The position numbers and the translations under genes are program-made. The notes under the pieces are model-generated. The model did no database searches. It was not told the origin of the DNA and saw only the letters and a list, made by a program, of their open reading frames with translations. Positions 3 through 52,092 of a DNA stretch of 64,000 nt are shown here, piece by piece. Origin of the DNA: an uncultured Bacteroidales bacterium (GTDB lineage: Bacteria; Bacteroidota; Bacteroidia; Bacteroidales; UBA3824); contig CALFIU010000189.1 of NCBI GenBank assembly GCA_937877455.1, positions 28,852 to 92,851 of the forward strand. Direction: 5' to 3'. Within the stretch, counting starts at the first letter, position 1. Each line of letters begins with the position of its first letter.

Positions 3-653
3 CTTACCTTCCGGGAATTCTCCCTCGAACTTCTTTTGACAGAAGCAAGGGGCCGTAATGAACGACGCAGGAAGAGGAACTATGCTGCAGCACACTTTCC
101 ACCAGATATCCGTTCCATCGATGAATTCGATATCTCCGAACTGGAATCCGGCATAACAGAGGGACAAATCAAGCGCCTTAAAGAACTGAACTGGATCGAC
201 ACCCATGGAAACATCATCTTCGCTGGTCCTCCCGGTCTTGGGAAGACCATGCTTGCCTGCGGGCTTGGGCTGGAGGCTATCAATAACGGCTATACCGTCT
301 GCTTTGAACGCATGGCCAACTTTGTGTCAATCATGGATAAAGCCGCTGCGGGCGACCGATCCTCCGGTTTCCGCTTGAAGAATATCCTGAAAGCCCAGCT
401 GGTTCTGATAGACGAGATTGGGTATACACCCATCTCCCGCAGCCAGGCCAACCGCTTCTTTACATTCATCAGCAACTGCTACCGTACCACCTCCGTGATC
501 TTCACTACCAACAAACAGGTTTCTGAATGGGCAGAGGTTATGGGCGACGCGGACTTGACAGGCGCTATGCTTGACCGGATCCTCAGCCATGCGGCGTGCT
601 TTTCACTGAAGGGCGATTCCTACCGACTAAAGCACCCTGAACTCTTCATTTAA
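3..653 (+). CDS. istB: IS21-family helper ATPase IstB (5' end outside window)
   Basis: Frame open from position 3. Walker A GPPGLGKT, Walker B LVLIDEIGY, and TTNK...EW...DRIL motifs typical of IstB/DnaC-like ATPases. Confidence 0.9.
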   Translation, partial: LTFREFSLELLLTEARGRNERRRKRNYAAAHFPPDIRSIDEFDISELESGITEGQIKRLKELNWIDTHGNIIFAGPPGLGKTMLACGLGLEAINNGYTVCFERMANFVSIMDKAAAGDRSSGFRLKNILKAQLVLIDEIGYTPISRSQANRFFTFISNCYRTTSVIFTTNKQVSEWAEVMGDADLTGAMLDRILSHAACFSLKGDSYRLKHPELFI

Positions 654-680
654 GCTATCTATAACCACTCGGTTGTGAAT

Positions 681-840
681 GGAAAATCTTCTTACCGTAA
701 ACCAGGAAAAAGTCCTTACCGAGATAGTGGAAAAAGTCCTTACCGTGTAATAGGAAAATTTGCTTACCAGGATTATGGAAAACTCCTTACCGGACAAATA
801 GAAAAACTCCTTACCTTACCACTGGAAAAAGTGCTTGACA
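681..840 (+). repeat. Seven direct repeats GGAAAAnnnCTTACC at ~24-bp phasing (IS21-type multiple transposase-binding sites)
   Basis: Copies start at 681, 705, 729, 753, 777, ~800 and 825. The last copy runs into the terminal ...TGACA. Confidence 0.8.
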
Positions 841-1873
841 TTCACAAGAAATAACCATATATGAACGAGGAAAGCCACGGATTATAACGCCAATCCATAT
901 TAAAGACAGGGTTATTCAAAAAGTATTATGCGACTATGCGCTTGTGCCAATATTATCTAAAACTTTGATATATGATAATGGAGCAAGTCTTGAAGGAAAA
1001 GGTGTTTTATTTTCAAGAAATCGAATGCTTCAACACCTTAGAAATGCGGTGAAAGAATATGGAACTGATTTTTATGTTCTCTCGTTTGATTTCAAAAGTT
1101 TCTTTGACAGCATACCGCATAAAACATGCAGAATGATGCTTAATAGATATATCTGCGATCAAGAAATAATTGCTTTGACAATGGATATTATCAAAGCGCC
1201 ATATCGTGTAAAAATAAATAAAATAAAAGATAAAGAAGAAAAACAAAAACAACTTAAACTTCTTGATAATGATGAGTTATGCGGAATTTGTCTTGGCAGT
1301 CAGGTATCTCAAATAATGGCTCTTGTTATTGCTAACGACATTGACCACTACATCAAAGATATTAAGAAATGTAAATATTATACAAGATATATGGATGATG
1401 GAAATATTTTCCTTAAAACTAAAGAGGAATTGAATGATCTTCTTTGCGGCATGAAAGAGATAGCAGAAAATCTCGGATTACACTTCAACTTGACTAAAAC
1501 TCATATTACGAAGATTAGTAAAGGATTTACATTTTTAAAGGTACACTATTCTGTCACGGACACGGGAAAAATAGTCAAAGTATTAGTACGATCTGGAACT
1601 GTAAGAATGAGAAGAAAGTTAAAGAAGTTTGAAAATAAAATTCAAGATGGGAAAATGACGATTGATAATGTCTATGATTCAATTCAATCATGGGTCGCGC
1701 ATTCAAAAGTTGCCAATTCTTATACGACAGTTAGAAGTATGTTGAAATTATATAATGAAAAGTATAATGGATACAAAATTACAAAGAAATGGGAACATGT
1801 TAAAGGAGGAAAGAACAGTGAGTTATTACAAACTGATAAGTGGGCAGAATATCGTTGGGGTCGTGTCACTTGA
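839..1873 (+). pseudogene. Reverse transcriptase, 5'-truncated by the IS21 insertion (DGR-like or retron-like RT core)
   Basis: Frame reads HSQEITIYERGKPRIITPIHIKDRVIQKVL from 839 and is closed by TGA at 836-838 at the IS end. RT motifs present: SFDFKSFFDSIPH, LGSQVSQ, YTRYMDDG. Confidence 0.75.
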
Positions 1874-2573
1874 CAACTTTAGGCGATATCAGGCTAAACA
1901 CGGTATAGTTCTGTTCTCAGATATAGACACGGCGCAATACGTGGAATTTAGGGGAGTCTATTATAGGGATGACTGGCTGAAGGCTACAACAACTGACAGA
2001 ATCCAATATGAAGATGTCTCTATAATATCTATTGACGAGACAGAATATAATGCGCTAATTGAAGCGTTTGAAACAAATGATGAAATTGAAATCGAGCCAA
2101 CTGAAGAGCCGATTGACAATACAATACCACAAGATGAAAACGAGCAAGTAACTTTAGAATTTGTTCGCGATGCAAAAATTGCTCAAATGAGCAAAATATG
2201 TCATGATACGATAGTAAACGGAATAGACGTTGTTTTGAGTGATGGTGAAAGCCATCATTTTTCTTTGGAAATCGAAGATCAAATTAAAATACAGGCATTG
2301 GCTCTGAAGGCGCAGAATGGAGAAAGTACGCTTTTCTGGCACGAAGATGATATGCCGTGTAAATTTTATTCTGCAAATGATATTTTAGCTATATACACAG
2401 CGCTTGAGAAAATACAGACTATAGAAACGACATGGTTTAATTCATTAAAGATGTATATCATGTCTATGGAAACAATCGAACAAATAAGCGCAGTTACATA
2501 TAGAACAGAAATACCAGAGGAATATCAAAGTGAGGTTTTAAAATATTTACTTAGCCAACAGGATGGTGAGTAA
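1818..2573 (+). CDS. Phage tail-fibre-associated protein (DUF4376-like C-terminal region)
   Basis: GTG start 8 nt after AAAGGAGGAAAG. The C-terminal half resembles DUF4376 proteins of prophage tail modules (recalled similarity only). Confidence 0.5.
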   Translation: MSYYKLISGQNIVGVVSLDNFRRYQAKHGIVLFSDIDTAQYVEFRGVYYRDDWLKATTTDRIQYEDVSIISIDETEYNALIEAFETNDEIEIEPTEEPIDNTIPQDENEQVTLEFVRDAKIAQMSKICHDTIVNGIDVVLSDGESHHFSLEIEDQIKIQALALKAQNGESTLFWHEDDMPCKFYSANDILAIYTALEKIQTIETTWFNSLKMYIMSMETIEQISAVTYRTEIPEEYQSEVLKYLLSQQDGE

Positions 2574-3063
2574 CATGAAAAACATGATTTTGAAAAACTT
2601 AGTTTTATTCTTATCTGGATTTTGTCTATATATGACGATAGAGTGCCTTTTTCGTGGGTACTCTTTTCCGTTGATGGGTTGTTGCGGCGGATTATGTGTT
2701 GTCATACTTGATAAGATTAACGATTACATTTCGTGGGATGTTGACTTATTTTGGCAAGCCTTATGCGGTGCTTTATTAGTGACAATAATGGAACTTGTCA
2801 TAGGAACTATTGCAAAATATACTGACTTACTTCCTGTTATGTGGGATTACTCTTCTCTTCCGTTGAATTTTAACGGAATAGTATGCGTACCATTTTTTAT
2901 AGCATGGCTATTTTTAAGTGTAGTAGCAATCTTTTTAGCTGATGCAATAAATTATTACATTTTTGAAGATACTGTTGTTCCGCACTATGTATTATTTGGT
3001 GGGTTGTTTGTAATTGTCTTTCATAAAAAGAAATGTGATATAGAGGTGAGAACAAATGAATAA
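2563..3063 (+). CDS. Multi-pass membrane protein (PF06541 / putative ABC-transporter type IV-like)
   Basis: 4-5 hydrophobic segments and a WDYSSLPLNFNG motif. Start overlaps the preceding stop. Confidence 0.5.
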   Translation: MVSNMKNMILKNLVLFLSGFCLYMTIECLFRGYSFPLMGCCGGLCVVILDKINDYISWDVDLFWQALCGALLVTIMELVIGTIAKYTDLLPVMWDYSSLPLNFNGIVCVPFFIAWLFLSVVAIFLADAINYYIFEDTVVPHYVLFGGLFVIVFHKKKCDIEVRTNE

Positions 3064-3349
3064 TGTTATTGTTGAATATAATGATTTTTCAAAAGAAAAC
3101 TCAAATGTAGAAAAGATTACTTTTGATTTGCTACCAAATGTATCTCTTACTTTTTCACAAGGAACAAGTGCGGATACAGACGGAAACGATGAAACAGAGA
3201 ACACTGATACAGAAACTAATGAAGGTGTGCTTTCAATATCAATGGTTGACAAGCAAACTGATGAAACTGAAATAACAGGGGCGATTGACATTGAAACGCT
3301 TAATGCATTAATCAGGAGCTTAATTATTTTCAGAGGGCAGATATCATAA
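3056..3349 (+). CDS. Hypothetical acidic protein
   Basis: Co-oriented ORF with start overlapping the upstream stop. D/E/T-rich. Confidence 0.4.
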   Translation: MNNVIVEYNDFSKENSNVEKITFDLLPNVSLTFSQGTSADTDGNDETENTDTETNEGVLSISMVDKQTDETEITGAIDIETLNALIRSLIIFRGQIS

Positions 3350-3801
3350 TGGCAAAGAAAGATAAGAGATTATTTGCAATCCTTATTATGACACTTGTTA
3401 TTCTTATGTGTATACTTTTATCTATTGGTTTTAAGAAATCTAATAAAAGTGGAATTTTATTGGAGAGTAAAGGTCGAGAAAAGGTGCTAAATCAGTCAAT
3501 TTCGATTTTCGGATTTTCTGAATTACACATGAAATCTGGCGAATTAGAACAATCATTCGATTTTCGCAATCCAAAAACAAATAATTGCTATATGAATATA
3601 GAATTACTATTATCAGACGGATCGCAACTATTCGAGATAAAGAGAATCGAACCCGGATATGGGATAAAGGAAGTACAATTAAATAAAGTTTTGGAAAACG
3701 GTGATTATTTGAATTGCCTTTTTAACATTAAATGCTTTTCATTGAACGATAATGCGCAGCTTAACGGTGCGTCAATGTCTGTCAATCTATATGTGAGGTA
3801 G
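3349..3801 (+). CDS. Hypothetical protein with N-terminal transmembrane anchor
   Basis: ATGA stop/start overlap with the upstream ORF. Hydrophobic N-terminus LFAILIMTLVILMCILLSIGF. Confidence 0.45.
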   Translation: MAKKDKRLFAILIMTLVILMCILLSIGFKKSNKSGILLESKGREKVLNQSISIFGFSELHMKSGELEQSFDFRNPKTNNCYMNIELLLSDGSQLFEIKRIEPGYGIKEVQLNKVLENGDYLNCLFNIKCFSLNDNAQLNGASMSVNLYVR

Positions 3802-3807
3802 AGATAG

Positions 3808-4257
3808 ATGAAGAAAATATTTTGTACAATCATATCAATTATAATGCTGATCGCTAATCCAGTTTACGCATCGGAACAAACGGCGCAAGCAACAATTACC
3901 TATACTTGTGATGATAGTTTTTATATTGAAATACCATCGACAATAAATGTCGGCGAAGAATGTTATATCAATGCCGTAGAAGTAAATATATCTCCAACAA
4001 AAAATGTATATGTGGATTTAGGACATCCAGAAGGATACGTCAGGTTATATAACGAAGGAAATGAAAACGAATATATAGATACATATTTTCAAGATGGCAG
4101 CGGAAATACATTAACCGTTACAAACCTAAACCTTGCAATGTTTTCTTCTGGTTCTTCTGGTTCAAGCCAATCATTCACAACATATGTAGAAGATACAACT
4201 GGAAAAACTGCTGGTCAGTATACTGGCGTTGCTATGTTTTGGATTCATTGTGATTAA
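3808..4257 (+). CDS. Secreted hypothetical protein (signal peptide)
   Basis: MKKIFCTIISIIMLIANPVYA/SEQ signal-like N-terminus. GAGG-type RBS upstream. Confidence 0.5.
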   Translation: MKKIFCTIISIIMLIANPVYASEQTAQATITYTCDDSFYIEIPSTINVGEECYINAVEVNISPTKNVYVDLGHPEGYVRLYNEGNENEYIDTYFQDGSGNTLTVTNLNLAMFSSGSSGSSQSFTTYVEDTTGKTAGQYTGVAMFWIHCD

Positions 4258-4262
4258 AAATA

Positions 4263-4299
4263 AGGGTATAAGATGCTACGTCTTATACCCTAATCTTTT
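4263..4299 (+). terminator. Rho-independent terminator closing the plus-strand gene block
   Basis: 11-bp stem AGGGTATAAGA/TCTTATACCCT with a 7-nt loop, followed by AATCTTTT. Confidence 0.7.
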
Positions 4300-4311
4300 C
4301 CTTCCTCTTTT

Positions 4312-4345
4312 CTTGAGATACTATACGTGTGTAAATTGAATACTG
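4312..4345. repeat. Left copy of the 34-bp inverted repeat bracketing the integrase/attP segment
   Basis: CTTGAGATACTATACGTGTGTAAATTGAATACTG matches the reverse complement of 5967-6000 at 31 of 34 positions. Confidence 0.9.
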
Positions 4346-4349
4346 TTAA

Positions 4350-4710
4350 GGTATTTGCGTAAACTTAGCCGAAGGAAATCGGTTTTTATTTTACGCATTT
4401 TTATACGCAAATCTTACGCATAACTTGCTGATAATTTGCGATAAAACACGATAGTTTATGATACTTTACTCAACAGCGTCAATTGACTTCTCAATGTGCT
4501 GAAACCCTTATAAATCAAGGCTATACAGGACTTCTTGATTAAGACTTAGCCGAGGTACTTAGCGCCCCATCTGAAATGCTACCTTTGTTCCAAAACAGGC
4601 TTAAATACTGCATTCCCAAAACGCTCTACGCAACTTTTACGCAACATCACGCAGATTTCAAAATCACATTTGCAAGATATTGTTACGCATCGCCTTAATT
4701 CTACGCACTT
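4350..4710. other. attP-like region: two clusters of TACGCA arm-type repeats flanking a ~200-bp central segment
   Basis: TACGCA at 4404, 4415, 4627, 4638, 4684, 4702, within TTACGCA at 4391, and inverted at 4356. CACGCA at 4648. ACTTAGCCGARG appears twice (about 4364 and 4543). Confidence 0.55.
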
Positions 4711-4735
4711 TTAAAATAATGTCAATCTTCAATTT

Positions 4736-5935
4736 TCAAAGAAACTTGCCGACTTTCGTGACCTCTTCTTTGGTTTTATCTTCTAATATATGTGTGTAAG
4801 AGAGTGTGGTGCTGTAATTCGCATGTCCCATGATACTCTGAACAACAACAGGGTCTAACCCTTTTTCAAAACACCTTGTCGCAAATGTGTGTCTAAAACA
4901 ATGTGGATGAAGATGCCCGAATTCACGAGGTTTTCTTCCTTCACGATAAGCACGATTGCTTTCTTTCAGGATGATATTTGTCTCAACCTTCTTCAAATCA
5001 TGCACTATATTATATCTCGTGATAGGTGATCCCATCGTGGTTGTGAAAACCAAATCACCAAACTTTTCATCTGAACGCCAACGACTGCCGAGCTTCTGCC
5101 TGTATAAATCCTGCTTATTCTTCCATACTTTGAAGAGGTTTTCCGTATCATCAAAGAACGGAATAGAACGATACGAATTTGCTGTCTTTGGCGTAGTAAG
5201 CTCCATTATCTTTTTGCCATCCAGATAGGCAGTCATCATTGATCGTCTAATGTGAATGACTTTCTTTTCAAAATCTATATCATCCCACTGTAAACCAGAA
5301 AACTCACCAATCCTCATGCCAGTAACCAGAAGTATTCTATAAGGTTCATTATAATAACTGTCATTTACTTCTTCAAGAAAAACATCCTGTTCCCAATGGT
5401 TAAGAACTCTCCGCTCTTTCGCCATTTCGTTTCCTTCATGAACAGTAACGCCTCTGCATGGATTTACAGAAAGAATTTTGTTCACAATGGCAATGTCGAG
5501 ACACTCTCTGAGAACACTTAATGCTTCTTTTATACTTCTTGCATTATAATGTTCTACTTCATATAATTGAGTGGCAGCATCTTGAATATTCATCTGCGTG
5601 ACTTCTTCAATCCGCTTATCGCCCAATATCCTTATAAACGTGTTTCTGAGTTTCCTGTCATATGTTTTTCTGCTGACATCTGATTTCAGCTGCGGTGATT
5701 TACATTTTTCAAACCATTCATTGTACCATTCTTTTAGTTTTAAGTTTGGTCTAATACCCTTTTCATCTCTTAACACTCTTGCCTTTTCCATTTCAAAAGT
5801 TTTCTTTAGATTTGGAAGAGACATATCATAGATGTCGATTTTAACGCCGTTGATTTTCGCCCTTGCTTCATACCTCCCATCCGGGCGCTGACTAAATCCT
5901 TTTCCTAATTCTTTTCCTTTTAAGTCTTTTCCCAT
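4736..5935 (-). CDS. int: Tyrosine recombinase / phage integrase
   Basis: N-terminal SAM-like domain. Catalytic region contains LLVTGMRIGE ... HCFRHTFATRCFEKG ... MGHANYSTTLSYTH (R..HxxR..Y). AAGGAG RBS. Confidence 0.9.
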   Translation of the reverse strand: MGKDLKGKELGKGFSQRPDGRYEARAKINGVKIDIYDMSLPNLKKTFEMEKARVLRDEKGIRPNLKLKEWYNEWFEKCKSPQLKSDVSRKTYDRKLRNTFIRILGDKRIEEVTQMNIQDAATQLYEVEHYNARSIKEALSVLRECLDIAIVNKILSVNPCRGVTVHEGNEMAKERRVLNHWEQDVFLEEVNDSYYNEPYRILLVTGMRIGEFSGLQWDDIDFEKKVIHIRRSMMTAYLDGKKIMELTTPKTANSYRSIPFFDDTENLFKVWKNKQDLYRQKLGSRWRSDEKFGDLVFTTTMGSPITRYNIVHDLKKVETNIILKESNRAYREGRKPREFGHLHPHCFRHTFATRCFEKGLDPVVVQSIMGHANYSTTLSYTHILEDKTKEEVTKVGKFL

Positions 5936-5966
5936 AATTCATATCTCCTTTCGGGGAAACAAATTA

Positions 5967-6000
5967 CAGTATTCAACTTACACACATATAGTAACTCAAG
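5967..6000. repeat. Right copy of the 34-bp inverted repeat bracketing the integrase/attP segment
   Basis: Its reverse complement CTTGAGTTACTATATGTGTGTAAGTTGAATACTG pairs with 4312-4345. Confidence 0.9.
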
Positions 6001-6016
6001 TACAAATAAATGTCAA
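5988..6016 (-). promoter_or_regulatory. Sigma-A type promoter for int (TTGACA-N17-TACTAT), with its -10 inside the inverted repeat
   Basis: The minus strand reads TTGACATTTATTTGTACTTGAGTTACTAT. Confidence 0.6.
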
Positions 6017-6036
6017 TAAAAGATTAAACAAAATAA

Positions 6037-6423
6037 TTATTGATTACCGTTTATAATATCGTTTAGGCTTGCTATTCTTTCTATTGTTTGATCTGGCGTA
6101 TGACCATCCCATTCAGGTGCATTTGTTAATTCTGTAACATCAAATAAATCCCAACAATCAAGATGATAATGATATGTAGCCTGACCTTTTGGCGTTTGAA
6201 TTCCGACAATAAACATATCGTCATACATTGGTTCTTTTTCTTCATCATGATGTCTCTTTGATTTCCAAGCTACTGCCTTAAACATATTAAAAACCACGGA
6301 TGATAAAATAGCTCTGTGATGATATAATTCTTCAAATGTATGATTGCCATCAGAAAAATTTTTAAAAGAACCTTCCGATACACACTTATTAAATAATGCG
6401 AGTTTTTCAAAATAATTATCCAT
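6037..6423 (-). CDS. Hypothetical protein (conserved EWDGH motif)
   Basis: Co-oriented ORF, 8-nt overlap with the upstream gene. Confidence 0.5.
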   Translation of the reverse strand: MDNYFEKLALFNKCVSEGSFKNFSDGNHTFEELYHHRAILSSVVFNMFKAVAWKSKRHHDEEKEPMYDDMFIVGIQTPKGQATYHYHLDCWDLFDVTELTNAPEWDGHTPDQTIERIASLNDIINGNQ

Positions 6424-6871
6424 CGTTTTCTATTCCTTTGTTATTATTGAATGTGGCAATTTCTAACATGGCTATCATATTACCAGCTATCGTCCTGATA
6501 GTTTCATTTTGCTCCATTCCATTTTTATACGCATATGCACATATCTCATGGATGATATGTTTCAAAAATTCAGTGTCAGCCTCAAAATCTTCTGTAGAAA
6601 TATCTACAGGCGGTTCGTCTATTGTACTCGATATTTTATGTGTATCGTTATCAAACAGACAAAGTGTTATATTTCCACCATCTTTTTTATTATAAACATA
6701 ACCAGCAAAACCATTATTTTTCTGATAGTCCGGCATACTCATAATGTGTTGAATCACAGCATTCAGCGCGTCATCAGTCATTTCAACTCTGCCAGACAAA
6801 GACATCTTTCCATCTTTAAGTATATTCGCATAATAAATATTGCCAAAACTTCCACAAACTAATTTCTTCAT
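6416..6871 (-). CDS. Hypothetical protein
   Basis: Co-oriented ORF in a tightly packed operon. Confidence 0.5.
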   Translation of the reverse strand: MKKLVCGSFGNIYYANILKDGKMSLSGRVEMTDDALNAVIQHIMSMPDYQKNNGFAGYVYNKKDGGNITLCLFDNDTHKISSTIDEPPVDISTEDFEADTEFLKHIIHEICAYAYKNGMEQNETIRTIAGNMIAMLEIATFNNNKGIENDG

Positions 6872-6872
6872 T

Positions 6873-7061
6873 TTATATACCTATTTGATATTTTATGCAG
6901 CTGTCGAGATAATCATCAAATTTCTTTTTATCTATGTAGTACCTGTTTCCCATTTTTACCGTGAACACACTGTCTTTTCTTTTTACGATTTCCCTTACTT
7001 TCGTTTCTCCCCATCCTGTATATTCACAGATTTCTTTAATTGTTAAAAATTTCTTATCCAT
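6873..7061 (-). CDS. xis: Excisionase-family helix-turn-helix DNA-binding protein
   Basis: 62 aa. LTIKEICEYTGWGETKVREIV is a typical Xis/MerR-like HTH, and the gene lies close to int. Confidence 0.6.
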   Translation of the reverse strand: MDKKFLTIKEICEYTGWGETKVREIVKRKDSVFTVKMGNRYYIDKKKFDDYLDSCIKYQIGI

Positions 7062-14951: not shown

Positions 14952-15025
14952 TCACTCTCCGAATTATCTTGCATTATTTATCTGTCAATATTGATGTGAT
15001 AGCCTTCTCGAACTACCACACCAAT

Positions 15026-15054
15026 ATAGTACCATATATAATCCGCATTGTCAA
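15026..15054 (-). promoter_or_regulatory. Sigma-A type promoter TTGACA-N17-TACTAT (TG-extended)
   Basis: The minus strand reads TTGACAATGCGGATTATATATGGTACTAT, preceded by GCAAAATAATAA. Confidence 0.55.
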
Positions 15055-15305
15055 TTATTATTTTGCAATGCTTTTAAATTTGTGAGCATCCATACCAACG
15101 GCTGAACGGATTCGCTAATAGAATATTCTTTGCCTCTTAATTCAATGGCAAATCCACCATCGCCAAATACATTATCAGATGTGAAAGAGCCAATAAATCT
15201 TGTTGTTCCTAATAATAATGTCAATGCACATTCAGCGCTTTCCGCTTCAGATATATATATAAACACTTCATGTTCACTGAACTTAATGACAATGTACTTT
15301 TTCAT
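15051..15305 (-). CDS. Hypothetical protein
   Basis: Co-oriented ORF. Confidence 0.4.
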   Translation of the reverse strand: MKKYIVIKFSEHEVFIYISEAESAECALTLLLGTTRFIGSFTSDNVFGDGGFAIELRGKEYSISESVQPLVWMLTNLKALQNNN

Positions 15306-34328: not shown

Positions 34329-34348
34329 GTTATGCTTTCCTTTCTTTA

Positions 34349-34414
34349 TTATCTTGCATTATCTATTATACCAAACATAAGATAGCTTGTCAATTACTAT
34401 CTTGTATTATTTCT
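34349..34414 (-). promoter_or_regulatory. Motif-bracketed promoter: AATAATACAAGATAG-N3-TTGACA-N17-TATAAT-N7-GCAAGATAA
   Basis: The minus strand reads GAAATAATACAAGATAGTAATTGACAAGCTATCTTATGTTTGGTATAATAGATAATGCAAGATAA. Confidence 0.7.
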
Positions 34415-39075: not shown

Positions 39076-39941
39076 TCGGCTTCTAAGACACCATCGTGTA
39101 GTAAATCTCTTATAAGACTTCTTGCTTTTTCTGTGTTGATGTAATACTTTTCATCAACTTCATCTTCGAGCATGTCTAATAAACACTTCCCATCTGATAT
39201 CGGTTCTGGAAATTTAAATTGTCCGTTATCCATTTCCTTCTTGATTATGATTAGATATAATCTTTCTCTGTTTTGAGGTATGCCATAATTCTTAGCATTT
39301 AATACTTGCCAATAACAGTTATATCCATATTCGCCAAGTTCAGATATGAATAAATCAAAAGTAGGTTTAAATCTCTTGCTTACAATATTCTTTACATTCT
39401 CGTATATTCCCCAAGTAGGTTTATTTTCTTTTATGATACGCAACCATTCAACAAGTAGTGAAGATCGTGTTTTGTCAAGGTTCTGGCTACCGCAATTAGG
39501 GCATTTATTTCTTTTTGAATAATGAACTGTTAATGGATTATACTCGCATCCGCAATCGGAGCATTGCCATCTGCTGCCTTTCTGTTTTCCAGCTATTGAA
39601 AAATCCTGACATGGACTCCCACCGCAAATCATTGTAAATGGAAAAAGATTGTGTTCATCAACTTTTGTTATATCACCGAGATTTAAACTCTCATCTACTC
39701 CGTGAATTGCGCAGAAGCTTTTTGTTGCAAACTTATCAAATTCGCAGAAGTTTACAAGTTCATAACCTCGATCCGATAAAACAATCTTTTTATCGTTACT
39801 ATCTTCCATAAACTACCTATTTTAGCGCACTTTGAAAACCGTAACGCTTCACCTTTCTTGATTTTGTCGGCAAGCGAAAAATCTTTTTGACTATTTTAGC
39901 GAGTTTATTTTCACTGAAACGTTAATAAAAAGATTGTTTCT

Positions 39942-40007
39942 TTATCTTGCCTTATTTATTGTACTATATTAACACAATTTAGTCAAGTGTTATTTTGCAT
40001 TATCAAT
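39942..40007 (-). promoter_or_regulatory. Motif-bracketed promoter: GATAATGCAAAATAA-N3-TTGACT-N17-TACAAT-N7-GCAAGATAA
   Basis: The minus strand reads TTGATAATGCAAAATAACACTTGACTAAATTGTGTTAATATAGTACAATAAATAAGGCAAGATAA. Confidence 0.7.
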
Positions 40008-47268: not shown

Positions 47269-47303
47269 GATTTTTCCTCCATGTTCTTTGTTTTTAGTGG
47301 CAG

Positions 47304-47384
47304 TGCGGATGAAGGGATTCGAACCCTTACGCCTTTCGACATTAGTTCCTAAGACTAACGTGGCTGCCGTTACACCACATCCGC
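47304..47384 (-). tRNA. tRNA-Leu (anticodon TAG), class II
   Basis: Folds by hand as GCGGATG/CATCCGC acceptor, anticodon arm TTAGT-CTTAGGA-ACTAA, a 13-nt variable arm, and T arm AAGGG-TTCGAAT-CCCTT. Confidence 0.85.
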
Positions 47385-47389
47385 ATTTA

Positions 47390-47483
47390 CAAGGCGCATT
47401 TGTTGTTTGGTGTCCTTGTCGGACAAAAAGATAATTCCCATAATCATCGCTTGTTAAACATTTACGATTGCTGTATGCGCCTT
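47390..47483 (-). ncRNA. ACAGCAA-box structured RNA, stand-alone copy (closing helix AAGGCGCAT/ATGCGCCTT)
   Basis: The 9-bp closing helix encloses AU-ACAGCAAU, an ATCG...CGAT hairpin and a GTCC-GACAA-GGAC hairpin. Confidence 0.6.
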
Positions 47484-47515
47484 TCGTGCTATAATAACAA
47501 CCCTTTACAGGGTAA

Positions 47516-47588
47516 TAGAAGGAGAAGGAGTCGAACCTTCCGCAGCTGCTTTATAAGAACAGCCCCATCGCCGCTTGGGTATCCTTCC
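47516..47588 (-). tRNA. tRNA-Ile (anticodon TAT)
   Basis: GGAAGGA/TCCTTCT acceptor (G1-U72), anticodon arm CTGTT-CTTATAA-AGCAG, and T arm GAAGG-TTCGACT-CCTTC. Confidence 0.75.
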
Positions 47589-47936
47589 AAACATAATCAA
47601 TACCAATTCTCCTCGTCAATAATTACTCAATCACCGAAACACTGTTAGTTGGTTTGCGTTGCCTTCTTCACCGAATGGCTACTTAATCCACATCCACGCC
47701 TCATTATCGGCGATTTGAATTGATATTGATTTGTCCGTATTGACTCGTCCTGTTTTCAGCCCCAACAGTCAGACCACCATCACGCACGATAGGCAGAACC
47801 AATCAACCGATACTCGTACACTGTTGCGTTTTATAGTATATTAGTAAATCTGGTGCGTCAGTCATCATAAGTGAATAAGTATATATCATTTCAACTTATT
47901 CCATCCTTGTCTACGGATGTTTTACTTATTTCTGAT
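47589..47936 (-). ncRNA. ORF-free, relatively GC-richer ~350-nt segment inside the tRNA array; candidate large structured RNA
   Basis: No minus-strand ORF. Several local and long-range complementarities, including CATCC..GGATG, GAATAAGT..ACTTATTC and CAACAGT..ACTGTTG. Confidence 0.3.
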
Positions 47937-48017
47937 TGCGGTGATTAGGATTCGAACCTATACCTCGCCCACGTTTCCCATGTCTACAGGCGTATGCTGC
48001 CTCTTACAACACACCGC
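47937..48017 (-). tRNA. Aberrant tRNA-like gene (normal acceptor and T arm, enlarged ~15-nt anticodon loop)
   Basis: GCGGTGT/TCACCGC acceptor and T arm ATAGG-TTCGAAT-CCTAA. The stem CGCC(TG)/(TG)GGCG closes the loop TAGACATGGGAAACG. Confidence 0.45.
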
Positions 48018-48151
48018 TTTTCAGTTATTCCATACCTTTGCATTTGTCCTATGGTTAGCTACACCATCGCCACCCTCACACTATTGCTAATCTTTCCCTC
48101 GATGCTATTCTTTGGATAACCTTTCTGAATTATTCGCGATATAATTCATAG

Positions 48152-48233
48152 TGCGGATAAAGGGATTTGCACCCTTACGCCATTCGGCATGGAATTTTAA
48201 GTTCCACATGTCTGCTTGTTCCATCATATCCGC
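48152..48233 (-). tRNA. tRNA-Leu (anticodon TAA), class II
   Basis: GCGGATA/TATCCGC acceptor, anticodon arm TGGAA-CTTAAAA-TTCCA, a long variable arm, and T arm AAGGG-TGCAAAT-CCCTT. Confidence 0.85.
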
Positions 48234-49004
48234 TTATATGGTGTTCCATTCATAGTCTGATATTCTTTTTATTTCAGAAGAATGATATGGCAAGTTATAT
48301 GATTTGCACCATTTTCTTATAGAATTGTCACTAACACCATAATTTTTCCCAATTTGTAAAAATGAATGATGTCTAATCATGTGCTTTAAGACATCTCTTT
48401 CTGGCTTTTTGCTTATGGCACTATATCTCTTTTTAACTTCACACGATTTACATCTTTTTGCATGTCTACTTATTTCTTTTCCACAATCGGCACAATAATT
48501 TTTAGAATCAATTTTATTTCCTATATGACTATCATGATTCGTAACGACATGTTCATATTTTCTTTTTGCACGACCACGATAGTTATCTGTTAACGCGTGG
48601 CAATTTGGACACAAAACCTTTAAGTTGCTCAAATTATTATTAAAATGATTTCCGTCTACATGATGGAGTTCAAGAGGAATCTGAACACCTTGCCAATATT
48701 CTAAACCGCAATTTTCACATTTCATATTTTTGATACCTTCTTTAATCAATCTATTTTTTAATGAAAGTGATTTAATTGGTTTTTCGTTATTCAAGAAAAT
48801 TTCAATTGGCAATTGTTTCCTATTACAACTATAACCTTTATGTGATTTATTTCCTTCATAATTAATACCAAGCACATTTAAATACTTGTTTAATGTCGTT
48901 GATTTACATGAAAGCTCTCTGCAAATATATTGTTTAGACCTATTTTCTGAAATCCATTTTAAAATATCATCTTTTCTTTCTAATATATCCTTTCTTTGTT
49001 TCAT
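48234..49004 (-). CDS. HNH homing endonuclease embedded in the tRNA array
   Basis: CENCG...LELHHVDGNHFNNNLSNLKVLCPNCH plus C-terminal HTH-like repeats. Its stop codon abuts the tRNA-Leu(TAA) 5' end. Confidence 0.8.
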   Translation of the reverse strand: MKQRKDILERKDDILKWISENRSKQYICRELSCKSTTLNKYLNVLGINYEGNKSHKGYSCNRKQLPIEIFLNNEKPIKSLSLKNRLIKEGIKNMKCENCGLEYWQGVQIPLELHHVDGNHFNNNLSNLKVLCPNCHALTDNYRGRAKRKYEHVVTNHDSHIGNKIDSKNYCADCGKEISRHAKRCKSCEVKKRYSAISKKPERDVLKHMIRHHSFLQIGKNYGVSDNSIRKWCKSYNLPYHSSEIKRISDYEWNTI

Positions 49005-49194
49005 TAAATATTCACTGACGAGTTAATATATTTTTTTTTAAAGTGTAAAGACCTTTACAATAAACTTTACACGTATTTTGTTTAGCGCTTAAAAGTAAAC
49101 CAAATGACAACATACACACTGAAACACAAAGCACAAATCTATCTTTAGGAGGAGATACACCATGTAGCGCTAAATCAGGTTTTAGAAGTTTGAA

Positions 49195-49320
49195 CGGCGA
49201 GGACAGGACTCGAACCTGCGACCTACGGCGTTTAAGGCATAATATTAAAATTGCTGTGTGTATCTTAACAAGATACGTTGTTTGTTTTTACGTTGCTCTA
49301 ACCGACTGGGCTACCTCGCC
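49195..49320 (-). tRNA. tRNA body (Asn-like GTT stem-loop) with extra sequence on both sides of the anticodon hairpin
   Basis: Has the GGCGAGG/CCTCGCC acceptor, U8A9, D arm GCCC-AGTCGGTTA-GAGC and T arm GCAGG-TTCGAGT-CCTGT. The centre is A/C-rich linker, then GTATC-TTGTTAA-GATAC, then ACACAGCAAU plus 26 nt. Confidence 0.6.
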
Positions 49321-49387
49321 GACATAGTGGATATGGCATGGAATAATCCAAGGTAAGAACCCATATCCACTTTACATATGAGTGTTC

Positions 49388-49438
49388 TAAGCGCTTATAC
49401 CCTTATCTGCTAATGGTTATAATTGCTGTTGGCGCTTA
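49388..49438 (-). ncRNA. ACAGCAA-box structured RNA, stand-alone copy (helix TAAGCGC/GCGCTTA)
   Basis: The closing helix, the CA-ACAGCAA box and a second helix TTATAACC/GGGTATAA with a 12-nt loop. Confidence 0.55.
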
Positions 49439-49447
49439 AATTTATAT

Positions 49448-50947
49448 TTACAGTAATCCTTCTACAGCTTCTCTTACTTTCGCATAGCGTTCTCCATTCA
49501 GCGTTTCAAGAAGAACTTTGTAAGGATCGACCTGATTGCTCATGAACATCTTCAGAATTTGAACCGAAAATCCACTGCAAAGAATAAGTCCCATGTCATT
49601 CTGTTGCATCGGAATTGTTCCGTTTAATCTACCACTTAAATTCCAGAAACAAATCCTCGGAAGTTTATATCCTGCATCCTCAAACTCCTGCGCAATTTCG
49701 TCAAACAGGCTCTTGTTAAGATTATGAGAATGACCGTCAAACTGCATGTCAGAACAAATCACAATCATCTTTGGCATATCTTCCGCAGAAGTATGATTTC
49801 TTTTTGCTGTTTTCAGGATTAGCATCATAGTCTTATAGATGTCTGTATTTGAACAATCTGACTCGCGCAAGGAAAGATCGATTTTATCTGCAAGCGAATA
49901 ACAATTCGACAGATCGACAATCTTCGGATTGGACGAAAAAGTGACGAACTTATTTTTCCAATCACCTGTATTATGTTCGGACATATAGATTGCAAGCGCG
50001 GTTGCTACATCCAAAGGTGTACCACTTCCTGCAAAACTTCCCCATGTCATAGAACCAGAACCATCACGAACAATCAGTGTGTTCTCTACAGACAAGTCAG
50101 GAAGAGCTTTCCATAGTGCTTCGAGCGTTGCGTCATTTCTGCATCTATTCTGGCGATACTTCAGGCAGATCTCGTGAGGATTAAGTGTACTTGCGTTAAT
50201 CTTTACAGTTCCTTTTTCAAGTGATGCAAGATATTCGCGTCTACGATCTTCATCGTTACGGAGAAACGCGCCGTTGTATATCAGATTAGCCTTAGAAGGC
50301 ACAGACTCGTAATTGATTTTATCCCACTTTTTAGCACTCATCTTGACTTCGACAACATCAAGATATTTTCTAAGTTTGGACAAAGTCTTTCTGTACTTCT
50401 TTTCTGTCCATCCAAGTTCACGGCAAATCAGTTTTGCTCTATCAACTGTTATCTTGGATGATGCATTAACACTCGGCATCCACTTCGCGCACAACGAAAT
50501 CGACTTGCCTTCTTTCATGTTCGCTTTATCTTCTTTCAGCTGCGCCTTGATTAAAGCGATTGCCTTTCCTCTCGTTCTTTCATCATCGAGCATAACCATG
50601 ACGCTATCCCAACGATTATAGAACGGAATAAGATCAACAATAGCTTTTGCAATTTTCGGCTGTTTCTCTGCAAGATAACTTAAACCAGCTCTGAAAGCTT
50701 TTCTCTCGCCAAGCCCTTCACGGACATCGCCAAGATAGAAAAGATATTCAAGTGCAGTCAGCTTATCCTCGAAGAAAACCTTCATGAAATCTTCCTTGAT
50801 TGCTTCGGGAAATCTGTTTCGCATAGCGGATACGCCAAAGTTGAAATCAAGAAGTTTCTTTCCTGCTGTCGCATAAGCGATCGCGCCGTTTGTGGTTACT
50901 GATTTTTGAGTGTTCAATTCATTTTGCATTTCATCGAAGAAACTCAT
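49448..50947 (-). CDS. Ro60-like TROVE/vWA protein (DUF2828-type)
   Basis: N-terminus TTNGAIAYATAG..LLDF...LFYLGDVREGLGERKAF (TROVE/DUF2828-like). C-terminal vWA MIDAS motif RDGSGSM. Confidence 0.65.
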   Translation of the reverse strand: MSFFDEMQNELNTQKSVTTNGAIAYATAGKKLLDFNFGVSAMRNRFPEAIKEDFMKVFFEDKLTALEYLFYLGDVREGLGERKAFRAGLSYLAEKQPKIAKAIVDLIPFYNRWDSVMVMLDDERTRGKAIALIKAQLKEDKANMKEGKSISLCAKWMPSVNASSKITVDRAKLICRELGWTEKKYRKTLSKLRKYLDVVEVKMSAKKWDKINYESVPSKANLIYNGAFLRNDEDRRREYLASLEKGTVKINASTLNPHEICLKYRQNRCRNDATLEALWKALPDLSVENTLIVRDGSGSMTWGSFAGSGTPLDVATALAIYMSEHNTGDWKNKFVTFSSNPKIVDLSNCYSLADKIDLSLRESDCSNTDIYKTMMLILKTAKRNHTSAEDMPKMIVICSDMQFDGHSHNLNKSLFDEIAQEFEDAGYKLPRICFWNLSGRLNGTIPMQQNDMGLILCSGFSVQILKMFMSNQVDPYKVLLETLNGERYAKVREAVEGLL

Positions 50948-50987
50948 AATTGCTTTACCTCTCTCTTCTTAGTTTGTGGTTGCAATT

Positions 50988-51053
50988 CAAGGCACTGGTT
51001 TTGGTTGTAAGATTAAAAGTCTTATCCATAATTGTGGTTGCTGTATGTGCCTT
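50988..51053 (-). ncRNA. T-arm-less mini tRNA-like RNA displaying a Lys(UUU) anticodon stem-loop (ACAGCAA-box family)
   Basis: Reads AAGGCAC-AU-ACAGCAACCACAATTATGGA-[TAAGA-CTTTTAA-TCTTA]-CAACCAAAACCA-GTGCCTT-G. Confidence 0.6.
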
Positions 51054-51061
51054 AAATATAT

Positions 51062-51178
51062 AGCGCACGATTGGATTCGAACCAATGACACGATTTTTTG
51101 TTTGTTTAATTGCTGATTGCGATTATCACTAACCACGTTTAACAAGTTAAATTGCACTACCAACTGTGCTACGTGCGC
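51062..51178 (-). tRNA. tRNA body with ~50-nt insertion in the anticodon loop region
   Basis: Has the GCGCACG/CGTGCGC acceptor, U8A9, D arm GCAC-AGTTGGTA-GTGC and T arm ATTGG-TTCGAAT-CCAAT. The insert carries AU-CAGCAAU. Confidence 0.6.
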
Positions 51179-51193
51179 CATCCCTTTCGGGAA

Positions 51194-51349
51194 AAGCAGC
51201 GACAGGAATCGAACCTATGACTGCGGCTTGCCTCGGTAAATTTGCTGTATGTTTCTTTAATTCCCCAACTCTAACTCGTCTGTGCGGTTACTCTTGGTGG
51301 TAACAAGAAACATTTTTATGCCGCCGTGATCCCACTTCACTACGCCACT
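51194..51349 (-). tRNA. tRNA body with ~85-nt insertion inside the anticodon loop
   Basis: Reads AGTGGCG-UA-GTGA-AGTGGGA-TCAC-G-GCGGC[92 nt]GCCGC-AGTC-ATAGG-TTCGATT-CCTGT-CGCTGCT-T. The insert holds the GTTTCTT...AAGAAAC helix and AU-ACAGCAA. Confidence 0.7.
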
Positions 51350-51352
51350 TCG

Positions 51353-51476
51353 CCCATCGTGAAGGATTCGAACCTTCCCCTCAAGTTTTCCAGACTTGTA
51401 ATTGATATGTAATATTGCTGCAAGCGCTTCACTAAACGCACAATCAAAAGATGTGCTACCGCTACACCAACGATGG
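51353..51476 (-). tRNA. tRNA body with ~53-nt insertion between the D arm and the anticodon arm
   Basis: Has the CCATCGT/ACGATGG acceptor, D arm GTGT-AGCGGTA-GCAC, anticodon arm CAAGT-CTGGAAA-ACTTG and T arm GAAGG-TTCGAAT-CCTTC. The insert holds the hairpin GCGTTT-AGTG-AAGCGC followed by UU-GCAGCAAU. Confidence 0.6.
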
Positions 51477-51491
51477 GATATTTAATTTTTA

Positions 51492-51558
51492 CAAGACACT
51501 GAAATGGTAATATAAGTTAACAGCTTATTCCTCTTTCATTTATTGCTGTTTGTGTCTT
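51492..51558 (-). ncRNA. T-arm-less mini tRNA-like RNA displaying an Asn(GUU) anticodon stem-loop (ACAGCAA-box family)
   Basis: Reads AAGACAC-AA-ACAGCAATAAATGAAAGAGGA-[ATAAG-CTGTTAA-CTTAT]-ATTACCATTTCA-GTGTCTT-G. Confidence 0.6.
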
Positions 51559-51570
51559 TCATTTTTAACA

Positions 51571-51661
51571 CAAGGCACTTTATTTTGATGGACTTGAACC
51601 ATCTCGCAAAGACTTACAATGTATTTACTTTATCCGATGTTAAGTTTGCTGTATGTGCCTT
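51571..51661 (-). ncRNA. ACAGCAA-box RNA with a canonical T arm (Y-RNA/tRNA-like hybrid)
   Basis: Reads AAGGCAC-AU-ACAGCAA..., then TAAAG[16-nt loop]CTTTG, then GATGG-TTCAAGT-CCATC, then AAAATAAA-GTGCCTT-G. Confidence 0.55.
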
Positions 51662-51666
51662 TCTTG

Positions 51667-51732
51667 TTATCTTGCAATACCTATTATAGCATGCCGTTTA
51701 TGGTTTTGCAAGTGTTATTTTGTATTATTTCT
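51667..51732 (-). promoter_or_regulatory. Motif-bracketed promoter inside the RNA array: AATAATACAAAATAA-N3-TTGCAA-N17-TATAAT-N7-GCAAGATAA
   Basis: The minus strand reads GAAATAATACAAAATAACACTTGCAAAACCATAAACGGCATGCTATAATAGGTATTGCAAGATAA. Confidence 0.7.
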
Positions 51733-51765
51733 AATACTTTTTGAATGTCAACAACAACGGCAACG

Positions 51766-51838
51766 TGCGCCAGATGGGATTTGAACCCATGACTTTTCGA
51801 TTAAAAGTCGAATACTCTACCATCTGAGTTACTGGCGC
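51766..51838 (-). tRNA. tRNA-Lys (anticodon TTT)
   Basis: GCGCCAG/CTGGCGC acceptor, D arm ACTC-AGATGGTA-GAGT, anticodon arm TTCGA-CTTTTAA-TCGAA, and T arm ATGGG-TTCAAAT-CCCAT. Confidence 0.9.
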
Positions 51839-51842
51839 TTAA

Positions 51843-51913
51843 CAACCCCTGATGGAGTCGAACCATCACATACAGGGTCAAAGCCTGTTTCGCTACCGTT
51901 ACGATAAGGGGCT
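51843..51913 (-). tRNA. tRNA-Gln (anticodon TTG)
   Basis: AGCCCCT/AGGGGTT acceptor, anticodon arm ACAGG-CTTTGAC-CCTGT, and T arm GATGG-TTCGACT-CCATC. Confidence 0.8.
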
Positions 51914-52042
51914 AAAAAGTATTGCGTTTGTCGAAAGTTTATGTTATCATATATGAGCCATCATTAGTTTGATGTGCTTTGTGTATGTGGTAGGGAGTTG
52001 GCTTTAAGCCTTCTCCCTATCTTTATTTCCTTCAACTCTTAT

Positions 52043-52092
52043 AGTGTACCACACGCGCAAATATTCGTCAAGCGTTTTTTTGCATTATTTTT
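52043..52092 (-). promoter_or_regulatory. Promoter of the tRNA/RNA array: AATAATGCAAAAAAA-N3-TTGACG-N17-TACACT (TG-extended)
   Basis: The minus strand reads AAAAATAATGCAAAAAAACGCTTGACGAATATTTGCGCGTGTGGTACACT. Confidence 0.65.

Follow-up and report, generated by a model that had tools for sequence, protein, structure and literature searches.

The 64-kb window analysed here (the whole stretch of DNA under study, 64,000 nucleotides) is part of a large phage genome, its source contig measuring 101 kb, and carries a phage integration module in which a tyrosine integrase gene, int, adjoins the phage attachment site, attP. The module is enclosed by a 35-nt inverted repeat, one arm of which overlaps the int promoter and the other of which lies at the outer edge of attP. 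From an analysis of this repeat in the window and in related integration modules we propose, with roughly even confidence, that the arms may pair with each other in int mRNA, joining its 5' leader to its 3' untranslated region (UTR) in a long-range helix that would be possible only on unintegrated phage DNA.

The int–attP module and its inverted repeat

The locus has the parts of a phage integration module: a tyrosine recombinase gene with an adjacent attP, and clusters of TTACGCA-type repeats on both sides of the inferred attP core. From position 4736 onward almost all genes are encoded on the minus strand, a leftward array that int closes; a short block of plus-strand genes (36–4257) converges on a terminator at 4263–4291. 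The features of the module are:

4255–4298, bidirectional: intrinsic terminator hairpin (stem 4263–4291), starting about 20 nt past the distal arm and followed by TTATTTTT on the int strand
4312–4346, minus strand: distal (3') repeat arm, bordering the attP P arm on its outer side and 390 nt 3' of the int stop codon
4347–4450, unstranded: attP P arm with arm-type repeats, the outermost of them inverted and 9 nt from the distal arm
4560–4580, unstranded: attP core or crossover region (int strand, ...TTCAGATGGGG...), inferred by similarity to the L017 lineage
4620–4735, unstranded: attP P' arm, a cluster of arm-type repeats (consensus TTGCGTAAAA, int strand) that are conserved in relatives
4736–5935, minus strand: int, tyrosine integrase of 399 amino acids (Pfam Phage_integrase, 3.3e-26)
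4787–4799, plus strand: third, partial copy of the repeat, TATATGTGTGTAA, inside int at the S-Y-T-H-I codons around the catalytic tyrosine
5944–5948, minus strand: int ribosome-binding site AGGAG, read from the sequence and lying outside the repeat
5966–6000, minus strand: proximal (5') arm of the inverted repeat, overlapping the -10 and start region of the int promoter
5988–6016, minus strand: int promoter from a consensus scan, TTGACA (6016–6011), 17-nt spacer, TACTAT (5993–5988)
6037–6423, minus strand: WDGH gene, upstream of int and co-oriented with it
6416–6871, minus strand: DUF7446 gene, upstream of int and co-oriented with it
6873–7061, minus strand: xis-like gene (Tn916-Xis/HTH_17), two genes upstream of int

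A repeat search showed that the two 35-nt arms, 1619 nt apart, match at 32 of 35 positions (91% complementary), and that they rank first among the inverted repeats of the whole window. The first-pass annotation had reported a match at 31 of 34 positions between 4312–4345 and 5967–6000, which is correct, the repeat reaching one base further; the promoter that it described, TTGACA-17-TACTAT with the -10 in the right-hand copy, was also detected by our consensus scan. The repeats enclose int and a repeat-rich flank, as had been stated, but this flank, rich in TTACGCA-type repeats, measures about 390 bp (4347–4735) and not 480 bp. Five of the window's 11 exact copies of TTACGCA fall within 4356–4689.

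The inner 18 nt of the repeat, GTGTAARTTGAATACTGT, match the window only at the two arm sites when up to three mismatches are allowed, with 0.20 matches expected, and TATAYGTGTGTAA has three matches against 0.31 expected. The third partial copy, within int, is probably coincidental, as it falls on the codons of the catalytic-tyrosine motif, where relatives vary synonymously.

The proximal arm provides the first ~16–20 nt of the int leader and in the window ends 31 nt 5' of the ATG. The predicted int start site falls within this arm, and transcripts from the int promoter are predicted to carry only its inner ~16 nt and read-through transcripts of the xis operon the whole arm. A terminator scan predicted none between the upstream genes (6037–7061) and int, so that read-through transcripts would carry the entire 5' arm; it also predicted none between int and the distal arm. 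The distal arm lies on the same strand as int, beyond attP from it, and reads ACAGTATTCAATTTACACACGTATAGTATCTCAAG on the int-sense strand, the complement of the 5' arm. It has no local partner, and the terminator hairpin is separate from it.

Conservation of the repeat in related integration modules

Thousands of relatives are known for the integrase. Loci (designated by L numbers) were taken through exact-protein look-ups, a genome scan, a metagenome scan and IMG/VR, and in each the 130 nt preceding int were compared with the 1000 nt following it to find the highest-scoring ungapped inverted repeat. The same geometry was found in 27 loci representing 21 distinct arm pairs (Int identity 56–100%), with repeat scores of 12–26; in these 27 loci the proximal arm ends 21–36 nt before the int ATG and the distal arm starts 346–392 nt after the stop codon. 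The best chance repeats of the other loci score 8–12, at scattered positions. Related integration modules were where the first-pass annotation had suggested looking for the repeats, and there they are present. The metagenome-assembled genomes that carry related integrases are labelled Ruminococcus, Blautia, Kineothrix or Clostridia, and the upstream neighbours of the module vary among loci (WDGH, protein kinase, xis, dUTPase). A -35/-10 pair is found at the same position, with different spacers, in the window group, L014, L103, L105, L185, L188 and L194.

Arm length ranges from 13 to 35 nt across lineages. Arm sequences vary by lineage, yet the two arms match within each genome: the inner arm reads ...AAGTTGAATACTGT in the window, AAGCTGAGTACG in L105, AAACCGTTCTGTAA in L107, ATAAAATACCGTT in L154, GTAGTTAGATACTGTAA in L188, AATCTGAATAC in L194 and GAACACTG in L196. 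When the arms were aligned, 28 of 41 pairs were changed on both sides and 97.9% of cells were paired, a level reached by none of 500 shuffles. Over a fixed inner 14 nt, identity is 92% between the two arms of one genome versus 70% for the same arm between lineages. By these comparisons the two arms co-evolve, their matching being kept while the sequence changes, and 5'-UTR/3'-UTR complementarity is conserved in all 21 arm pairs.

No comparable pairing was found in more distant Int clades (about 51–60% identity); for short-arm lineages, long-window RNAduplex z-scores are uninformative. The feature thus appears confined mainly to a clade of at least about 66% Int identity, plus L122 (62%) and L154 (56%). 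A megablast of positions 3800–6600 against INPHARED phages gave no match, and when IMG/VR was scanned with the Int protein, with the repeat pattern and with an Int alignment, the relatives that came up were distant or few. Rfam, searched at a permissive E-value with the window region and at the gathering threshold with eight loci read as attL, returned nothing relevant, neither a known RNA family nor an RNA-gene target.

A different kind of complementarity was seen in an integrated clade of 59% Int identity (L142 and L146–L150), in which a perfect 13-nt complement of the leader motif ATTACAGTATTTT lies 32 nt past the int stop codon. This complement sits within the P' arm, not beyond attP, and could be due to chance or could represent a variant whose 3' partner stays linked to int after integration.

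Strand asymmetry and predicted RNA pairing

Comparison of the proximal arm with the reverse complement of the distal arm shows that, at transition mismatches, the G or T is mostly in the former and the A or C in the latter. Such transitions are G·U pairs in int-sense RNA and A·C mismatches in the opposite strand. With mismatch events counted once per alignment column and type, there were 14 unique transition events giving G·U in int-sense RNA versus three in antisense RNA, plus six transversions (binomial P = 0.006 at p0 = 0.5; P = 0.017 at p0 = 0.546, from the flanks in the same register). Counted by cells, the ratio is 39:3 within the arms versus 212:176 in the flanks. A double-stranded DNA site gives no reason for such a bias, which therefore argues for pairing in int-sense RNA.

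Duplex predictions agree with this direction. The sense duplex is predicted to be more stable than the antisense duplex in 18 of the 21 arm pairs, equally stable in two and weaker in one (L107); in most lineages it would comprise 26–35 bp with a dG of -37 to -49 kcal/mol. Minimum-free-energy folding of the whole ~1.7-kb transcript with the full arm kept most of the arm–arm helix in 12 of 13 lineages, and all but one pair in eight of those 12. Folding of transcripts that begin at the int-promoter start also kept most of the helix in 12 of 13 lineages.

Position of the arms relative to integration

In the L017 lineage, loci with a distal arm (L017 and L018) and loci without one (L109–L115) are collinear from int to ...AAAATACTTCGCAATTCAG, ~185 nt past the stop codon, and beyond this point they diverge into several unrelated sequences. 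We read L017 and L018 as the attP form of the locus and L109–L115 as attL, the form present in an integrated prophage, with the crossover at the point of divergence. Homology between the attP and attL forms of this lineage ends at ...TTCGCAATTCAG, which is the basis for placing the core; that of the window is placed by similarity only. Within the Int clade, every locus with arm-type repeats 200–480 nt past the stop codon (attP form) has the inverted repeat, and loci without P-arm repeats in that interval (attL form) have none. Across all loci, the exceptions are L120, L128, L137, L138, L159 and L175, which belong to more distant clades, and L195, in which the repeat is weak.

As judged from these alignments, the arms straddle the crossover site, and integration must therefore put them at opposite ends of the prophage. 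Two IMG/VR pattern scans for the distal arm at attR of an integrated prophage gave only int-proximal arms or chance matches in coding sequence, and an exact-protein look-up of the neighbouring open reading frame (ORF) at 3808–4257 found no record.

On the far side of the distal arm, a G+C-rich hairpin and T-run are found on the int strand ~5–25 nt after the arm in seven lineages (the window, L013, L017, L018, L103, L122 and L154). The hairpin sequences are unrelated among the seven, and in L017 the T-run is on the int strand only.

A proposed long-range helix in int mRNA

The proposed pairing of leader and 3' UTR would work as follows. On unintegrated DNA, leftward transcripts would pass int, attP and the distal arm and end at the terminator just past it. 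The 5' leader of these transcripts would pair with the 3' UTR, over 35 bp in read-through from the xis operon and over about 16 bp in transcripts from the int promoter. Recombination at the attP core, between the arms, would leave the distal arm at the prophage end opposite to int; prophage-derived int mRNA would consequently lack the helix, so that the helix would report the state of integration. Its presence would lower Int output from replicating or excised DNA, and Int, together with Xis, would stay available from an induced prophage. We infer the sign of this effect: the resemblance to lambda sib, the fact that RNase III acts on long perfect duplexes, and the precedents of icaR and of S. 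pyogenes prophages (see below) favour a negative effect, and stabilization in place of cleavage is also possible. With the promoter lying inside the 5' arm, read-through and promoter-proximal transcripts could be treated differently.

On sequence grounds, the most likely mechanism would be a new structural variant of retroregulation across attP. Pairing in int-sense RNA is an option that the first-pass annotation had not considered, and none of the three mechanisms that it offered (an invertible module, the termini of a mobile or exchangeable cassette, and duplicated promoter-operator sites) fits best. More tentatively, and with somewhat less than even confidence, we suggest the fuller picture of an RNA-level integration-state sensor: an int mRNA helix of 13–35 bp that would span gene and attP only in the unintegrated state, recombination that would rewire the fate of the mRNA, and read-through (xis plus int) and int-only transcripts that would possibly be handled differently. 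Such a sensor would be a second, structurally independent answer to the problem solved by lambda sib, and would be widespread in large phages of gut Clostridia.

Several observations weigh against an RNA helix. We infer transcription through attP, the pairing and any cleavage alike. The figure of 97.9% paired cells is high partly by construction, the arms having been picked as best inverted repeats, and the strand asymmetry is only modestly significant by unique events (P about 0.02), with L107 carrying two A·C pairs. Lineages share the sequence of the outer part of the repeat, TATGTGTGTAAG, in both arms, a conservation that would also suit recognition by a protein. In most lineages part of the repeat, the -10 among it, lies upstream of the int start site, and this portion counts for RNA only in read-through transcripts. 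The proximal arm ends upstream of AGGAG, so the helix leaves the ribosome-binding site free. In some lineages the arms are short (13–19 nt); they would be poor RNase III substrates, and these lineages argue against a universal promoter-specific discrimination. Finally, in L009, L012 and L016 what comes after the distal arm on the int strand is a lipoprotein-like ORF with its ribosome-binding site, in place of a terminator.

The ORF that follows the distal arm in these three loci encodes 119–132 amino acids (L009, 5644–6003; L012, 5645–6007; L016, 5691–6089; locus coordinates). Those of L009 and L012 have a signal peptide and a lipobox (MKYRMKLVLIVLVMLLSLTGC... in L009). The window and L013 have the terminator in place of the ORF, and a remnant ribosome-binding site, AAAAGAGG, is kept at 4304–4311 of the window.

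Alternative explanations for the arms

The main rival to a leader–3' UTR helix, which we consider unlikely though it deserves serious attention, is that the arms are two DNA sites for one module-specific protein. The best candidate would be the Xis-like factor, whose gene lies 900 bp upstream, or else Int acting with a co-factor. A protein bound at the P-arm edge would contribute to the shape of the recombination complex, one bound over the int promoter or leader would repress int, and the two sites might loop in unintegrated DNA. The proximal arm, which covers the -10 and the start site, is placed as an operator would be, 9 nt separate the distal arm from the nearest, outermost arm-type repeat, and a Tn916-Xis/HTH_17 gene lies two genes upstream of int. 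The sequence conservation of the outer TATGTGTGTAAG in both arms points the same way, as does the arm-type repeat in the promoter spacer of L017-type loci, which suggests that autoregulation at the protein level exists in the family; directionality factors with a dual role are established (PMC2951348). Protein sites would, however, leave unexplained why G·U mismatches occur in one strand only and why the arms keep a constant inverted orientation on a single transcription unit that ends just past the distal arm. Nor would they account for the higher identity within genomes than between lineages (92% versus 70%), while the real protein sites of the module, TTGCGTAAAA, keep one consensus in every lineage. 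Arm length varies from 13 to 35 nt with no dyad or repeat substructure conserved between lineages, and no further copy is found in the 64 kb with up to three mismatches.

It is decidedly improbable that the distal arm is a duplicated promoter, co-controlled with that of int and directed either rightward, giving antisense transcription into int, or leftward, serving a gene beyond attP. In the 16 arm pairs with a repeat long enough to take in the -10 hexamer, both arms have it, but in five others (L014, L103, L105, L106 and L185) the duplicated segment begins at or after the start site and leaves the -10 out. The rightward TACTAT has no acceptable -35 in the window, L013 or L017, and the promoter scan does not list it. 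Read on the int strand, the distal arm gives TTAACA-18-TATAGT, which in L009, L012 and L016 lies just upstream of the ribosome-binding site of the lipoprotein-like gene; this leftward match is unconserved in L017 and L154, however, and in seven lineages it would fire into a terminator. Antisense RNA, furthermore, would pair with int mRNA without any inverted repeat. The first-pass proposal of duplicated promoter-operator sites with an antisense int transcript is poorly supported for the same lack of a usable -35 in the left copy and of a second -10 in five arm pairs, and the motif occurs at no other promoter in the 64 kb.

More doubtful still is the suggestion that the arms bound an exchangeable int–attP cassette, as hot spots of swapping or as a relic of acquisition, and have no regulatory role. 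Among close relatives, similarity does stop ~10 nt outside the distal arm, giving way to different genes or terminators, and the module adjoins different upstream genes (WDGH, protein kinase, xis and dUTPase). Such a coincidence of boundaries is, however, expected at the end of any functional module, and on the int side similarity runs past the arm and through the promoter into the upstream genes. A relic would also be expected to decay, whereas the arms stay matched amid sequence change in at least 21 arm pairs, and their mismatches are strand-biased.

An invertible segment, in which Int or another recombinase would flip int and attP between the arms and so switch int off, is very improbable even though an inverted repeat flanks a recombinase gene and, with the -35 outside and the -10 inside the proximal arm, a flip would uncouple int from its promoter, because all 27 assembled two-arm loci have one orientation with the -35-bearing flank always beside the int-proximal arm, 12 arm pairs keep, without a single exchange, a conserved difference of G (proximal) versus A (distal) at one site, and the arms, which bear no evident resemblance to the core region, straddle the attP core and the integration crossover and so lie a whole prophage apart in a lysogen.

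Comparison with known systems

The mechanism of lambda sib retroregulation is reportedly laid out in the work of Schmeissner and colleagues in 1984 and of Plunkett and Echols in 1989. sib is an RNase III site beyond attP that acts in the retroregulation of int (PMC2951348). Like sib, the distal arm is a cis element that lies across attP from int, on the predicted int transcript, and is removed by integration; both modules have xis upstream of int on its strand and a separate promoter for int, the product is double-stranded RNA (predicted here), and the logic is that of telling integrated from unintegrated transcripts. The two differ in structure. sib is a local hairpin that overlaps the terminator tI and sorts transcripts by their 3' ends, whereas the distal arm would pair with the 5' leader at a distance of 1.6 kb, and transcripts, if sorted at all, would be sorted by their 5' ends, as the promoter is located within the arm. 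The two elements share no sequence similarity, the hosts here are Clostridia, and cleavage and a negative effect are here hypothetical.

Pairing between the two UTRs of one mRNA, linked to RNase III, is known for icaR of Staphylococcus aureus (PMC3868564). The helix predicted here would likewise be an intramolecular 5'/3' UTR pairing in a Firmicute mRNA. The icaR 3' UTR, however, pairs with the Shine–Dalgarno region, whereas the phage helix would end 12–18 nt upstream of the ribosome-binding site and its 3' partner would be removable by site-specific recombination. In S. pyogenes, mapped RNase III cuts include sites within the 5' UTRs of int genes of prophages (PMC5389636). In ICEKp1 and ICEclc, int transcription depends on the state of the element, a promoter at the far end driving int after circularization (PMC13023037); int expression is there too tied to the joining of the element's two ends, but the far-end element of the phage lies downstream of int and is complementary to the leader.

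P2 Cox and 186 Apl are dual-role directionality factors, which bind attP arms and also repress promoters. In KplE1, TorI, the directionality factor that acts on intS, binds the attP arms and represses the promoter (PMC2951348). These systems resemble the phage module in that a single motif is shared by an attP arm and the int promoter, with an Xis-like gene close by; their sites, however, are degenerate repeats with a conserved consensus, whereas the phage arms are near-perfect, strand-biased and always inverted. A literature search for 5'–3' pairing or an inverted repeat spanning int and attP found none.

DNA invertons include the fim switch and the invertible promoters of Bacteroides and Clostridia. 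They share with the phage module inverted repeats of 13–35 bp near a tyrosine recombinase gene and a promoter element at one repeat; they differ in that the phage repeats keep one orientation in 27 loci, straddle the attP crossover and enclose a 1.6-kb segment that holds the recombinase gene itself.

lambda sib is the classic case of control from a site beyond attP; we found few other examples, and no sequence-recognizable counterpart outside the relatives of sib. If the helix forms as proposed, RNA-level sensing of the integration state would have evolved again, with long-range 5'–3' pairing instead of a 3' hairpin, and would occur in a large uncultured family of phages of gut Clostridia. It would also add a natural bacterial example of an mRNA that pairs with itself over a very long distance. 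Comparative searches for similar controls in other integration modules could use a simple signature, a terminator preceded by a segment that is complementary to the leader and borders attP on its far side. Should the arms instead be protein sites, the element would still mark a conserved control point that joins the int promoter to an attP arm.

Further observations on the int–attP region

An Int arm-type repeat, TTTTGCGTAAAA, lies in the spacer of the int promoter, 55–70 nt upstream of the ATG, in L017, L109–L115, L125, L130 and L180–L183. This position suggests that Int may autoregulate int in L017-type loci; the window's own int promoter has no arm-type repeat in its spacer. Leaders of the L017 and L019 types contain, 5–30 nt upstream of the int ATG, a local hairpin with the ribosome-binding site in its loop (GTCAATAT-AGAAAGGA-ATATTGAT in L017, TCAATT-AGAAAGGAC-AATTGA in L019), with compensatory changes between the two lineages.

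A strong promoter-like sequence, TTGACA-16-TAGAAT (11/12), is found on the minus strand at 4698–4725, in the P' arm just past the int stop codon, and its -10 overlaps the arm-type repeat GTGCGTAGAAT. It would read over the attP core toward the distal arm or, in a lysogen, from attL into host DNA. The arrangement TTGAC(A/T)...GTGCGTAAAAT is kept in the window group (L009, L012, L013 and L016); L196 and the other lineages do not conserve it.

The motif ACTTAGCCGA(A)GG occurs at 4364–4377, beside the outermost P-arm repeat, and, together with TACTTAGCGCC, at 4543–4568 in the inferred core; its P-arm copy is conserved in relatives as AACTTAGCCGAAGG. These motifs may be core-type or accessory-factor sites. 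A plus-strand hairpin at 4367–4384 was considered as the terminator of a small rightward RNA and rejected: although the CTTAGCCGAAGG segment is conserved, the 3' half of the hairpin is not conserved in L012, L013 or L014.

Other features of the window

At the left end of the window, a plus-strand gene at 36–653 encodes an IstB/IS21-type ATPase (Pfam 5e-54), and may belong to an IS21-family element or be a DnaC-like helicase loader of the phage. A reverse-transcriptase gene (RVT_1, 944–1873, plus strand) stands beside DUF4376 and CmpB-like genes (1755–2573 and 2563–3063), an arrangement also found in relatives. This locus may be a diversity-generating retroelement; no template/variable repeat pair of at least 45 nt was seen in the window. 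Between the ATPase and reverse-transcriptase genes, positions 684–836 hold a tandem array of about six 24-nt units (GGAAAAAGTCCTTACCG plus 7 variable nt).

A repeated intergenic element of ~47–69 nt (...AGTCAAGTGTTATTTTGCATTAT...) is present at several operon starts (15025–15071, 34346–34414, 39939–40007, 51664–51732 and 52042–52088) and may be a phage-specific promoter or regulatory motif. Five tRNA genes, Leu-TAG, Ile-TAT, Leu-TAA, Lys-TTT and Gln-TTG, lie on the minus strand within 47303–51914.

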